Source of the DNA: Lama guanicoe
Taxonomy: Eukaryota
Length of the DNA stretch: 64,000 nucleotides
NCBI GenBank assembly: GCA_013239625.1
Contig: MU053758.1
Coordinates: 1,984,001 to 2,048,000, forward strand
Direction: 5' to 3'
A program made the translations under genes and the position numbers. Below are positions 18,786-37,659 of the stretch, one piece after another. Within the stretch, counting starts at the first letter, position 1, and each line of letters starts with the position of its first letter. The notes under the pieces are model-generated. The model did not search any database, was not told the origin of the DNA, and saw only the letters and a program-made list of their open reading frames with translations.

Positions 18786-21199
18786 TCTTTTTCTTATCTC
18801 ATGAATTTGTCCTGGTTAGAAAACAAGAGACAAAGTACAAGAGACAAAGGAGAAAGAAAATTATATTGATAAAGAGCTGTTGTATTTTTAAATGGAGATG
18901 TTCATACTTTGATGGACAACAGCTGTCTCTCTATACTTACGAAACTTTTAATATGCTGTCCAACTTATGTAATTTCCACCTGTAGAGACTACTCATCTCA
19001 GTGTGATATGAAATACTTAAAAATATTTTCCCTTTTAGCCAAATATTCTAGATGGAGTTTTAGTAGAAAATGAGATGTATTTGGATGAGATATATTCTAA
19101 GAAAAGAAGTATGTGACCTTTTTAAAAAGTAAAAGATTCAACCCAAAAAAGTAACAAATACAATACATTCAATATTTGTCAATTAGTACATTGCTTTTAC
19201 AATCTTTATATTATTTTAAAAAATCACAGTATTAATGTAGAATTAAAAATTTGTAGTAATGTTTTTCTGTTTCTTTAAAACTGAGTACTGACATGTTCTT
19301 TGGTTAGAGAGATTAAAGAATAAAGATTTTAGTTTACAGCTTTTAAAATTTTACTATCTCTAACAGATTAAGATGGTTTCATTACAATTACCAATTATGT
19401 GAAATCAAAGTTTTGTAAAATTAATAAGACTAAAATAAATAAATAATAACTTTCCCCCTCAATTCCACTTTTGGTTAATAATAGTTACTGATAAGTCACA
19501 GGAAGGGCCTACACAACTTATTTTAAAATGAACATTTCCTAGAAGGAACTTTATTAAAATCACTGATAATCTACTTACACTGAACAATAATTCTTTAAAA
19601 AAAATTATTCATCACACACACTGACTTTGTGTCAATCCTCTTCCAACTCAGAAAACATTGTCTTTTGTATATATAAATGTATATGTACATATGCATAACT
19701 ATAACTCCAATCCAAGCCTCCTTGTTTCTAAAGTAACAACTAAGATGTTTCATCTGAGTTACAAATACATCCGACCAAAATGCATTTTCTCATTTTGTAG
19801 CAAAATTGCTAAAAATCATATTGTTACTTATTCATCTAAAAGGTTACAAATCAACTTATATTAACTTAAAATCAGTTATATATTTGAAAATGTGGCCAAG
19901 AAATTTAGTGCTTAGTGGAAAGCATACTATGAATCTCCTTTATAGCCATACCATACATAGCACTTTGCTTCAGCATTCAATGAGCATTTAAATTAGTGTA
20001 TCTTTTTAAATAATCATTAAAATTATACAAGTAACCTACGTGCATTGTCAAAAAGTTTACAAAATACAGCAAAATAAAAAGAGGAAAATTAAATTCATTT
20101 GGTTTTTAACATTTAAAATTAAGCAGTGTGGTTTATATCACTCCAGAATTTTACATCTATATTCCTTTTTACAGAAAAGGGAATCGCTGTTAGTATTATT
20201 TTGTAATCCACTTTTTCAATTGTAATTAAAATTGTAATTTCTTTCCATGCCAATAGACAAACTTCTCCAAGTATATATAAAGACTTCATGTGATTCCACC
20301 AAATGGAAGAATCTTGATTTATTTAATCCATAAGATTTTTTTTTAACTTTTTACAGTAGGCATGTTAAAGAATTTTCATTGTAGTAAAATCTGGCCTAGG
20401 ACTTGTTCTGTTTCTCTGAGGAATGTGTAATCTGGGACTTGGGTGGGGTCTGTGGGCTCTTCAGAGACTCACTGACATCTAATACCCAGGAGACTTTAGT
20501 GTGTCAACCACACACTACATATATTTTTAAACCTCTGAGAGGATTAAAACACAATGACCCAAATTCTTTTGAAACTGGTCTCTTAACAATTCCTTATTTT
20601 CCTCACTCTGACCTGAACGTTTTGGGGGAGATAGCAAGTTTTTCTGAAAATCCTAAAAGCATAATCCCAAATTATTTCTAGTTTCCTCTCAGCCCTCTGG
20701 AGAATAAGAATCACAAACCAGAACAATTCTAATAAAATGATGTTTCAATTCCCTGTTCCATCCCATTCATTTCTGCCCATGTGTAAAAGGCTTTGTGGGC
20801 CCTCTTAGATAAACTTTTCCCCCCCTGTTCAGAGAAAACCGTCAATAGCTACTCACTAGGATTTCTATTTTGTTTTAAACTAAGAAAATCTTTTGAAGAG
20901 ACCCACCCCCATCTACTCGAGAATTAGCCCAGAACATCTCCAAAGAGGTAAACTGGCGAGGCCGTGAAAGATAAACTGACTAATATAAGACTCAAACCAC
21001 ATTGTGATGAATTTTTGACCCCTTTCAGTCCCTGAAAAAATGAAATTATCTCAAGAAAGTATTGGGGGAAAAAAACTCTTTTTACCACAGATTTTGACAG
21101 TTTCCTGACTAAAAGATCACAGGAAAATGGGATTTAGTCGTTGTGCCCCACCATCCTCAAATTTCTTCAAGTTTTAAAAAGAAAATATTTCCTCAAGGT

Positions 21200-21700
21200 T
21201 TTGACGCCGGGAAGAGGGAGGGCCCGGCTACAGTCGACTCCGGAGCTGCGTTCCCGCCTCCCAGGCGCCCCCTTGGCCTCGAGAGTATTTCAGAATCCTC
21301 CCAGGAGCCCCAGCGGGAGGGAGACCCCGCCTCCTCATGAATACCAAGAACCTCCGCTCCCATAGTGCCATCCTCCCTCATGAATATTTTAGAACCTCCC
21401 TGAGCTCCCTCAGGAAGGAGACTCCGCCCCCTCATAAATAGTAAAAGTCCCGGCACCCACAGTGCCCTCTCACGTCATGAATAATTAACGAGGGCGAGGT
21501 CTCCGGAGCCCGAACCTAGGCCAAAGCCACGCTTTACTTCCAGCTGGTTACAGGAAGGGGTGGAGCCGTTGCAGTCGGGGAGGGGAGGGTGTAAAACGAA
21601 GAGCCCCAAGTTGGCGCGCCACACATCAGCTCCAAACCACTTCCTTTCCTTTTAACCTAGTGTTAAGCCGATTTTTTATTCCTCCTACGCCTACCCCAAG
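21200..21700 (-). promoter_or_regulatory. FBXO47: CpG-rich promoter and probable non-coding first exon of FBXO47
   Basis: Local CpG/GC enrichment in an AT-rich background. Contains TTGGCGCG (E2F-like, ~21611), CAACGG (MYB-like, minus, ~21566) and a candidate donor GAA|GTAAAG at 21538/21537. Confidence 0.7.
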
Positions 21701-21879
21701 AGGGTAAGTTACAAGAGCTTTCATCAAAACTTCTGTTGGGAAAATCCTCCAGACATTCTTTTTTAAACTTATCTGGGTGCCTAGAATCGAAGGAAGATAA
21801 ATGCCTCCATTGTCTCAAGATGGAGTCCAGGACAAATCTTACTAGGTTGGCCCTCCTCCCTTGAAGATTAAGTTCTCAT

Positions 21880-33579: not shown

Positions 33580-35625
33580 TTACATTTATTAAATATTGGA
33601 TAACTTTAAAAGAATATTTGTAAAATATGTGTAAGGAATAAAGAAAGAATCATGGTATCATGGACTCCTGTGTATACCCCACCACTCGGTTGTAGGAGAA
33701 AAAAAAAACACCCAACAACCATCATCACGACCTCTGAAGTCCCGTAGGGTCCTCTCCCAGTTCCCCCTCCCTCCTCCTCCCCCTCAGAGGTAAACATTAT
33801 CTTGAATTTGTGTTTACACATTCCCTTGCTTCTCATTATAGTTTTAACCACATACGTTATATTCCTAATATTTATATGTATATATTGCTTAAAATTTTAA
33901 GAGAAATATGGCATGCATACAAAATCACACATGAAATCATATGTTTTGTTTAAAAAACAATAAAATGAATACCTGTGAATCTGTTACCAGGCTAAGATAA
34001 AACACTATCAGGCTCCATGTCTACTGCCTTCCAATTACATCCTTTTTCTTCATCCTGGAGGTGAATATTATCTAGAATTTTATATTAACCATTTTTTGTT
34101 GTGATAAATATACATAACTCTTACCACTTCAACCATTTTAAAATGTGCAATTCAGGGTATTAAGTATATTCACATTGTTGTGCAACCATCACCACCATCC
34201 AACTGCACAACTTTTTTATATTCCCAACTGAAACTCTGTGCCCATTAACACTAATTCACCATTCCCTCCTCCCCCTAGATCCTGGCAGCCACAACTCCAC
34301 TTTCTTTCTCTAGGAGTTTGACTATTCTAGTACCTCATATAAGTGGAATAAGCACACAATATTTGTCCTTTTCTGACTGGCTTATTTATTTATGTTATAT
34401 ATATATATTCTTTTTCTTATACTTTTTCATTTAGATACTACGAGATACTGAATATAGTTCCTGATGCTATACAGTAGAAATTTGTTGTTTATCTCTTTTA
34501 TATATAATAGTATATGTAAATTCAAAACTCCAAACTCCCCATTTATCCCTCTCCCTATCCCCCTATTGGCTTATTTAATTTAGCCTAAAGTTTTTGAGCT
34601 TCATCCATGTTGTAACATGTGTCAGAATTTCCTTCCTTTAAAAAAAAAGGCTTAAATTAATCTGTGAAATGGGATTGCATTTGACTCTATAGATCAATTT
34701 GACTTTTTGTTTTGGTTTTGGGCTTTTTTTTAATTAATTTTTAAAAAATTATTGAAGTATAGTCAATTTACAATGTTGTGTCAATTTCTGGCCTGACATT
34801 TTTATCCATGTGAGTCTTGCAGTCTATGAACATAGTAAAGCCCTCCGTTTATCTTAGTATTCTCTAATATCTCTTAATAAAACTTTATAATTTCCCCCCA
34901 CAGAGATCTGGCACGTCTTTTGTTAGATTTATTTCTAGGTACTTTATATTTTTTAATTGTATTATAAATAATATCTCTTTAAAGTACATTTTCTACTAGT
35001 AGTTGGTGTATAGAAATGTACTTGATTTTCATTTATTGATTTTCTAATACACATGCTTGCTAAATTCTCGTATTAATTCTATGAATAGATCTGTATATCC
35101 TTGAAGATTTTCATTGCAAATAATCATATCATCTATGAATGACAGTTTTGTTTCTCAGTACATTTTTTTGTACTTGCTCGTACTCTGATGGTCTCCAGTA
35201 CCATATCGAAAATCAGCCATTCTTGTCTTGTTTCCAGTCTTAAAGGAAGTGATTTTTATGTATCATTATATTTGCTAATACTTTTTCTTTTTTAAAATCG
35301 TGAATGTATGTTCAATTTTGTCAAAGACCTTTTTCCCTTACTCAGTTAATGTGGTAAATTTCACTACTTGGTTTTCCTTTTTGATAACTTTGCATTATGA
35401 AAAATTTCCAATGTACATAAAAGCTGAAAGAATAGTACAATGAACACACATATGCCTATGACTTAGGAACAAAAACTGTTAATATTTTACTATTTTTGCT
35501 TTATGTATCATTTATATATATGTGTATATTTTTTCTTAACTGTTTGAAGATAACTTATAAATATCACCACACACCTCCCATGAAATACTTCAGCATGTAG
35601 CTTCTAAACATAAGGACATTTTCCT
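33580..35625 (-). mobile_element. Cluster of nested old L1 fragments
   Basis: cacattgttgtgcaaccatcaccaccatcc, ctctatagatcaattt and similar motifs. Confidence 0.75.
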
Positions 35626-35629
35626 GAGC

Positions 35630-35672
35630 TTTTTGTTTTTTGGCGGGGAAGTAATTAGGTTTACTTTATTTT
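35630..35672 (-). mobile_element. 3' tail half of the split SINE
   Basis: ttttgttttttggcggggaagtaattaggtttac matches the tails of intact copies such as 57804-57850. Confidence 0.85.
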
Positions 35673-35791
35673 CTATCTTAGCAACATTTAGATGGAAATC
35701 AAATTTAAATTCAGTTCACTCTGCTTGGTTCAGCTCCCAAATCTCGATTGTTTGGCGCAGTCTCCTATAAGAATACTCAGAAGGTGTCTTC

Positions 35792-36442
35792 TTATACAAC
35801 AAACCTATTTTTAGTGGTAGAGCCCCTCTTAGTAGCTCTGTCTGCATGGGACTGATAACCAATCACTATCTTTGGAGGAAGTCCTAACCTTTTCTTGTAT
35901 ACCCTCCCTATATATGTAACAGCGTCTCCGTTTTCACAGTCAGTAGTCCATATTGCTATCTTATCACCTTTAGCTCTAACACTAGCAACAGCTCCACATA
36001 CATCATCACTGTAGTCATCAAAAGATTCTCCAATAAGGCACAGCAGTGTCTCTAGCCAAAAGCGATCCAAGTAACTTCGTCTCTGCCGTTTGTTCAATGT
36101 AATTAGCCATTGTCCTCCTCGGTGATTTTTCTCATCTTCCCACATGGGCTCAATACCATCCTTAAAAAGTGAGTAGTCACAGCCAGGCATTAAATTACTA
36201 GACAACTGGATATGGTTGTACAGAGCCCAAAAGTCTTCAACAGTATCGACCTTAGAGATCAGCTGAAGGTTTGCTTGCCAAGTTTTGCTTTTATCATTTT
36301 TGAAAAACCAGAGTGCCCATCTGTTCTGTAAAGGATGTTTAATATAGTGTTTTGGGTTAGCAACCTCCTGATTAGCTGTTTTCTCTTCTTCTGTAGGCGG
36401 AGAACTAGGAGTAGGGGTGGTTTCTAGTTCCACAGTCTCCAT
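35792..36442 (-). pseudogene. EIF4E: Intronless EIF4E retrocopy with intact 216-aa ORF (retrogene or young processed pseudogene)
   Basis: METVELETTPTP...HPLQNRWALWFFKNDKSKTW...GIEPMWEDEKN...GSTTKNRFVV*. No introns; ~120 nt of EIF4E-type 3' UTR down to ~35674. Confidence 0.95.
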
Positions 36443-36857
36443 CTTAAGATTGATCTGATCCCACAACCGCTCCTGAAGTGGGGGGAGGCGGGGGAGGAAA
36501 AAATGAGATTCAAACCGGATTGGCCGACTACTGTTCACGTGTCCGACGTGTCCGTTTGGCCCTGGCGGCGCCTGTGCAAGACTGCAGGCTGCGTGTGTAA
36601 CAGGAGGCTTCTGGGGAGTCTCTCTCTCTCTTTTTTTAAAGGTAGAGATGTTAAAAAAAAAAAAAAAAAATAAGGACTGGTCACGTGGTGGAGGGGTACG
36701 TTGAACGGTTCTCCGAGCGGCGGACGGTCGCGTGCTGGAGGGTGGTTTTCAGTCCTTTGCTCTTCCGCCTGGATAACTGCTGTAACACTTACTAGCAGGC
36801 ATGACCCCTGTGCTCTTTGTTGCCTTGTCCTCCCATCTTCGCTGGAAGATTGGGAAC

Positions 36858-36950
36858 TTTTATTTATTATTTTTAACGGCAGTGCTGGGGATTGAACCCA
36901 GTACCTCATGCATGCTAAGCACATTTTCTACCGCTGAGCTGTATCCTCCC
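36858..36950 (-). mobile_element. 5' (tRNA-like) half of the split SINE
   Basis: gtgctggggattgaaccca...gctgagctgtatcctcccc; lacks its own taattagg tail. Confidence 0.88.
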
Positions 36951-37659
36951 CATTAGGACAGTTTCGTACAAAAGCATAGCAAATTATCACACCAAAGAAA
37001 ATGAAGAAGTAATTTATTTCTTAATATTAAATCTGCGAGGCATTCCTGGGGTAAATCCAACTTGATGATAATGTATTATCCTTTTAAACATTGCTGAATT
37101 CAGTTTGCTAGTAGTTTACTTGTGATACTCGCATTTATGTTCGTGAGTGCACCTGGTATATAATTTTCTTTTCCGTGCTGTCCTTGTAACGTTTTGGAAT
37201 GTCGCTTTGGCATTGTTTTTTTATTTAATTAATTCCATTTCAATTTAAATTAATTTAATGTGTCCATTAAATGAAGCTTGGTAACTGTGCTATTCAAATT
37301 TCATAAATCCTTACTGATTTTGTTTTGTTTTTTCCCTTGCTTGGTTTATCGATCACTTGAGGATATTACTGTCTCCCGTTATGATGATGGATTTTCAGTC
37401 TGATCTTTTAGTCTGTCAGTTTTTGCAGTCTATTTTTCATCATTATATAGTAAATTCTTCATATCTAATAATACTTTTTGCTTTCAAGTACATTTTGTCT
37501 GTTACTTACATAGTATATCAGCTTTCTTTTACTTAGTATTTACTTGGTGTGTTTTTTCTGTTTTTTCCACTCTTGATTTCAACCTCTGATTCATTTCTTA
37601 TATTCTAGATGGATTTTTAATAAACTGTATAAAGCTGGATTTTTCACTGCTCTGACAAT

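Follow-up and report, generated by a model that had tools for sequence, protein, structure and literature searches.

An EIF4E retrocopy in Lama guanicoe that probably carries its parent's promoter as a retained intron

The window analysed here is a 64,000-nt stretch of Lama guanicoe contig MU053758.1 (assembly GCA_013239625.1, positions 1,984,001 to 2,048,000). FBXO47 exons occupy 1-19 kb on the minus strand (Pfam PF24467 matches at E 2e-5, which falls short of the curated cut-off). Upstream of the first FBXO47 coding exon, a CpG island at 21.2-21.7 kb (21180-21720) is probably the FBXO47 promoter. In this island a CCGCC...TCATGAATA unit recurs several times in imperfect form, and CACGTC occurs once. 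At 60-63 kb lie exons that translation evidence places last in their gene, presumably PLXDC1. A copy of EIF4E sits between FBXO47 and PLXDC1, inside a SINE of what we take to be a camelid family, and this position identifies a locus other than the parent's. The copy, its host SINE and the 415 nt ahead of its start codon (the leader, 36443-36857) comprise the following features; motif offsets are counted from the A of the ATG at 36442.

35611-35623, minus: outer target-site duplication, 3' copy (repeat family D2).
35626-35671, minus: SINE 3' part, 80-89% identical to 6 other SINE tails; starts with the 3' copy of the inner duplication.
35672-35791, minus: short 3' UTR remnant, presumably so from its position and from what we take the parental UTR to be.
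35792-36442, minus: EIF4E ORF, open and intronless, 216 aa; matches solved eIF4E (E 1.5e-134).
36430-36449, plus: YY1 site over the start codon, its core broken by a substitution at 36438 and one extra base.
36443-36472, minus: short 5' UTR copy, 7/9 residues matching GAVVRSDRS.
36473-36503, minus: pyrimidine/C-rich tract ending in CAG, a promoter element region and putative 3' splice acceptor for upstream exons.
36473-36806, minus: putative retained intron of the upstream isoform, which would be the main EIF4E promoter (CpG island); its proximal 99 nt align to hamster model P0163.
36519-36523, minus: CCAAT box, string present at -81, on residues P-I common to the hamster model.
36536-36541, no strand assigned: proximal E-box CACGTG, string present, start -99, on residues H-V common to the hamster model.
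36568-36578, minus: NRF1-like site with one mismatch, of the CpG to CpA type, to what we take to be the NRF1 consensus.
36609-36617, minus: STAT3-like motif at -175, 8/9 to the mouse Eif4e STAT3 motif.
36682-36687, no strand assigned: distal E-box CACGTG, string present, start -245 (human counterpart about -233 from the EPD start).
36807-36857, minus: sequence apparently copied from an alternative first exon upstream in EIF4E; carries an ATG at 36836; bat model P0115 matches 9/10.
36856-36865, minus: inner target-site duplication, 5' copy, 7 nt exact or 9-10 nt with one indel.
36858-36952, minus: SINE 5' part (tRNA-like head and first A-rich linker copy), sharing 73-86% identity with 12 SINE heads elsewhere in the window.
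36953-36965, minus: outer target-site duplication, 5' copy (repeat family D2), 11/13 identical to 35611-35623.

The coding introns of EIF4E are absent from the copy. Its ORF is continuous where a vertebrate genomic locus is split into exon blocks (L008/L012; about 1.9 kb follows CDS base 537), and the start of exon 2, at ETTPT, is visible in alternative isoforms. Relative to a core that is identical in whale, orca, panda and fox, the ORF carries 21 residue differences and one in-frame single-residue deletion. Seven of the 21 replacements fall in columns at least 95% conserved (123 of 217 columns, 54 non-mammalian orthologues; P 0.02). The P for bias toward variable columns becomes 0.054 when E174D and the deletion product are dropped, and 0.086 when E169D is dropped too. 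E174D was rejected as a retrocopy change, being common to pig, rhino, rabbit and rat. About 4.5% of neutral change gives this number of replacements, and 27% of simulations yield no stop when only substitutions are modelled, a share that is lower with indels. The ORF has accumulated some 20 replacements without clear purifying selection, including R-to-Q changes at residues 61 and 112; R112Q presumably lies in the cap pocket, given the role we take that residue to have. The exact ORF protein is absent among 15 billion sequences, and the cluster members listed, at most 15 per cluster, include no camelid eIF4E-like protein. Annotated open 'eIF4E-like' copies occur in many mammals (P0047, P0132, P0133, P0140, P0156, P0159, P0165, P0168), so open EIF4E retrocopies are probably common.

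The insertion site is marked by the halves of the interrupted SINE, whose head and tail together make up a single element resembling the full copies elsewhere in the window. The insert begins at 36857-36855. The word AAATAAA stands both at the end of the head and at the start of the tail, as expected if a cDNA entered the A-rich linker; the match is exact over 7 nt, short and low in complexity. The AATAAA at 35665-35670 (minus), which the original prediction offered as a downstream signal completing a transcription unit, is present but belongs to the 3' copy of this duplicated linker word, and AATAAA occurs upstream of the insert as well. The 3' end of the insert has no A-run distinct from the SINE linker that could be called a poly(A) tail; the tail could have been lost or merged with the target, or the RNA internally primed. 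ARAGORN finds no tRNA in the SINE head, which holds 2 CpG (0-2 in the other 11 copies).

The leader has 22 CpG, a GC content of 0.53 and a CpG observed/expected ratio (o/e) of 0.78, against an o/e of 0.23 for the whole window. None of 148 other 415-nt tiles of the window reaches this o/e, and one, at the 21.2-kb island, reaches 22 CpG. These values make the leader a CpG island by standard criteria (>200 nt, GC >0.5, o/e >0.6). A CpG-rich leader in an otherwise CpG-poor region had been reported; the leader is as described, but the AT-rich 5' flank (36953-37400) also has an o/e of 0.79. Both CACGTG strings and the minus-strand CCAAT were found exactly where they had been reported, as was the C-rich tract ahead of the 5' UTR (about 36503-36476). 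At least two E-boxes arise in 4 of 5000 dinucleotide shuffles of the leader, and the NRF1-like site occurs in 0.93% of 20000 shuffles. No TATA string is present in the leader. Just ahead of the proximal E-box, at 36530-36556, a 9-nt near-duplicate (a CACGTC half-match) makes a second E-box/HRE-like word.

The parental origin of the leader was examined through predicted EIF4E proteins of other mammals whose N-terminal extensions translate upstream DNA. In total, 143 extensions from 206 proteins were compared with the window, many of the 143 being the normal N-terminus of bird or fish proteins. The hamster model P0163, whose extension is contiguous with exon 1, agrees at 24/33 residues with 36577-36479 (E 1.3e-15), a segment that spans the proximal E-box and the CCAAT box. 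At the other end of the leader, the MGGQG start of five models (bat, hare, rabbit, pika and golden mole) matches the ATG at 36836, which lies some 20 nt into the insert. The peptide opened by this ATG matches bat model P0115 at 9/10 positions, with 4/10 the next best among 2347 ATG-started peptides of the window, and matches the hare, rabbit, pika and golden-mole models at 7/9. The hamster, bat, pika and hare models describe parental loci, since their cores are only 2-3 residues away from whale eIF4E (hamster 3). A D-to-N difference in the upstream exon was rejected as a CpG loss since the bat model also has N.

Motif spacing extends the comparison across the middle of the leader (36806-36578, about 230 nt), which has no direct alignment and is supported by that spacing only. 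The human EIF4E promoter (EPD -499..+100), as given in the available part of one source, has exactly two CACGTG, at 266 and 419 and 153 nt apart (PMC7465665). The spacing in the leader is 146 nt, a fit that has a 6% chance given two boxes. A length change in the tracts between both E-boxes could be the source of the difference; 36617-36670 (minus) holds a run of 18 T, a run of A and an (AG)n tract. In mouse Eif4e, a STAT3 motif is mapped at -168..-160 from the ATG in the part of the report available (PMC7664055), and in 0.98% of 20000 shuffles a match lies no more than 10 nt from there. By the human offset, the equivalent of the main start falls at about 36461, so that about 396 nt above the main start were copied.

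Taken from both ends and from the human spacing and mouse offset, the evidence agrees with the prediction that the leader was inherited from the parent and that the copied RNA began upstream of the main start; homology to the parental upstream region is found by way of orthologous EIF4E protein models. Derivation of the leader from the parental EIF4E locus is very likely on these grounds. Other searches returned little. An initial set of 24 N-terminal extensions gave chance-level matches except for the UTR peptide and a golden-mole 9-mer. An exact scan with a 26-nt promoter word gave 0 matches in metagenome, genome and viral contigs and 0 in papers, and none of 19 related metagenome loci matches the leader beyond its T-run. 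A protein search with the in-frame leader had no match at E up to 1, and a single HMMER match over 1.84 billion representatives (E 4e-4) was rejected as a repetitive, unrelated protein. Human ChIP primers have no match in the window (best 12/24 and 12/23; PMC4673200). The available text of seven reports did not yield the EIF4E promoter sequence (PMC5706588, PMC2434200, PMC12519287, PMC6824538, PMC5790834, PMC2798714, bioRxiv 2020.10.12.336263), nor did parts 2-3 of the mouse study's supplement yield primers for the STAT3 region (PMC7664055).

Predicted gene models also suggest how an upstream exon is joined to the coding sequence. Just before the start codon, 21 mammalian models pass through G/R-AVVRSDRS, and the first position is G (16) or R (5) only. 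This restriction at a split codon indicates a splice acceptor of the form CAG/GA, so the C-rich tract would also be a polypyrimidine tract. Twenty of the 21 models reach AVVRSDRS from sequence that does not continue into the C-rich tract; the remaining one, from hamster, crosses the tract without a break. In four models the MGGQG exon is followed immediately by G/R-AVVRSDRS, and in the retrocopy about 335 nt separate the two. At the donor position implied by the MGGQG models the retrocopy has GG, not GT, and a GT lies 3 nt further on. Sequence that is intron in other isoforms (about 335 nt) is therefore retained here, the defining trait of a semi-processed retrocopy. To judge from these models, the RNA most likely started upstream, at the alternative first exon, and kept a promoter-bearing intron of about 335 nt. 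When unspliced, the ATG at 36836 opens a 14-codon upstream ORF.

The MGGQG exon itself is seen in P0018, P0115, P0127, P0146 and P0155, that is, in Afrotheria, Glires and Laurasiatheria, and an N-terminally extended eIF4E is possible in frame. Its conservation among the models suggests an under-described isoform or a regulatory uORF. The acceptor in 36473-36503 (minus) looks intact in the retrocopy, so read-through from PLXDC1, or from any same-strand upstream start, could splice into the EIF4E ORF.

The insert is probably an L1-made retrocopy of a rare intron-retaining EIF4E transcript whose promoter has since decayed in part and is most likely silent or weak. The start of such a transcript would lie just before the alternative first exon, some 415 nt upstream of the main ATG. 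Its coding-region introns would have been spliced out and the intron of about 335 nt, up to the acceptor 30 nt before the ATG, kept. Since the retained intron would be the gene's main CpG-island promoter, the two E-boxes would have travelled with the cDNA, as would the CCAAT box and the pyrimidine tract. L1 would then have integrated this cDNA into the A-rich linker of an older tRNA-SINE, after which the copy would have diverged by about 4-5%, mostly without constraint, while its promoter partly decayed. We infer three elements of this account: the intron-retaining template, L1 as the agent and present inactivity.

The 5' end of the insert could have another cause. The template may have begun further upstream and the cDNA been truncated by chance at -415, the short exon being incidental. 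Truncation at the 5' end is usual for L1 products, and starts further out are annotated: cetacean, carnivore and sheep models have much longer upstream extensions, spliced to this acceptor and without alignment to the insert. Chance would nonetheless have had to end the insert only about 20 nt before an ATG that opens five models from three placental lineages, and this explanation is the less likely one.

In the inherited promoter sequence, the two E-boxes and the CCAAT box are intact, and two CpG clusters persist around the E-boxes. In the UTR frame, R has changed to Q and R to G. The available text of one report describes an EMSA probe for a YY1 site at the EIF4E start codon (PMC2896514). 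Compared by eye with this probe, the window has a substitution in the YY1 core and an extra base at 36430-36449. The "ready-made promoter" of the original prediction was very likely inherited as sequence, but damage to the YY1 and NRF1-like sites speaks against its present activity. A word search of sequencing runs (114 words, 24 runs listed) gave a best share of 0.37 for a DNA-type run and 0.12-0.13 for 6 RNA-labelled runs, values with no bearing on expression.

The same origin could also have left a promoter that is still active, probably in the germ line, where E-box factors and NF-Y would keep the island unmethylated and an mRNA running from about 36461 to the SINE AATAAA would encode a variant eIF4E. 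The intact E-boxes and CCAAT box, the CpG clusters around the E-boxes and an o/e at the top of 148 tiles fit this reading, yet the TpG+CpA o/e of the leader is 0.97, compared with 0.70 in the FBXO47 island. Under a rough model, CpG survival in the leader is 0.61-0.77, below the unmethylated expectation of 0.91 (methylated, 0.41-0.62 at 6-10-fold). Retention is intermediate between the two expectations, which gives no clear support to the proposal that retained CpGs hint at low germline methylation. The AT-rich 5' flank, which we take to be old and L1-like, adds a CpG excess on the side of activity: 36953-37400 has 9 CpG against 2.6 expected, above 61/61 other AT-rich tiles with a boundary chosen after looking. 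Over the full 717 nt the excess has a P of 0.014, and an AT-rich window at 18.5 kb reaches 8 CpG. The flank ends abruptly at 37377. The ORF is open, with changes mildly biased to variable columns, and promoter-inheriting retrogenes have precedents, but about 20 replacements have accumulated where whale, orca, panda and fox are identical, and the damaged YY1 and NRF1-like sites count here too. A still-active copy is unlikely. The sequence features favour an inherited promoter in partial decay that is now most probably weak or silent, and present activity of the leader as a promoter seems doubtful. It is more improbable still that a germline-unmethylated E-box island continues to yield variant eIF4E (R112Q), or serves as a new promoter or enhancer for the meiotic FBXO47, whose island lies about 15 kb downstream of the retrocopy on the same strand.

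A leader foreign to EIF4E, acquired by template switch from another CpG-island RNA or in a one-step SINE-EIF4E-SINE chimera, could appeal to the unaligned middle 230 nt, to a leader-parent comparison made through protein models rather than nucleotides and to the absence of a separate poly(A) tail, but is highly improbable given EIF4E matches at both leader ends, E-box and motif offsets that fit human and mouse and an inner duplication of the SINE linker that flanks the insert.

Semi-processed retrocopies, in which one intron is kept and others are spliced out, are an established class. The kept intron of the EIF4E retrocopy differs in being 5'-most and alternative and in coinciding with the main promoter. 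A human intronless EIF4E retrocopy, attributed to Gao et al. in 1998, is reportedly transcribed, with an open and nearly unchanged ORF and promoter-like upstream sequence; that copy would be an independent primate event, and the camelid copy has about 20 replacements. A literature search, with subscription journals outside its reach, found no paper on a camelid EIF4E retrocopy.

Promoter inheritance from a parent gene has been described before. In the available text of Okamura and Nakai, type I promoter acquisition accounts for 16 of 29 retrogene pairs, including PABPC3, GLUD2 and PDHA2; these genes are transcribed and documented by capped clones, with scattered start sites as the explanation (Okamura and Nakai 2008, PMC2386082). 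The camelid copy, in contrast, is known from its sequence and holds about 396 nt from above the main start, apparently by way of the retained intron of a separate upstream exon. The accessible part of Carelli et al. reports 6 human and 7 mouse cases of parent-inherited promoters, about 3% of expressed retrocopies, and its Fig. 2A,B depicts the likeness to the present case, in which the transcript of an upstream alternative promoter gives the copy the downstream promoter (Carelli et al. 2016, PMC4772013). Their class is defined by a CAGE start inside parent-derived sequence, whereas the present case is identified by sequence. A review, as far as its text is available, lists parental motifs among the sources of retrocopy promoters (PMC5470649). 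For the parent gene, the accessible portions of several reports describe regulation of EIF4E by MYC via E-boxes (PMC5706588, PMC2798714, bioRxiv 2020.10.12.336263) and a basal element in the promoter (PMC6824538, PMC5790834). The camelid copy would be a further example of the described promoter-inheritance class, the added detail being that the promoter appears to have travelled as a retained intron.

Inheritance of a parental promoter is thought rare, at a few percent of expressed retrocopies. As it stands, the camelid copy is a good example of a described class. The case is a clean one, with boundaries set sharply by the split SINE and one concrete route, intron retention in an isoform with an upstream exon. 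It may serve as a fossil record of a short upstream EIF4E exon transcribed in the camelid germ line. It would also be a natural transplant experiment, asking whether sequence with E-boxes and a CCAAT box can by itself shield a CpG island from methylation inside old repeats.
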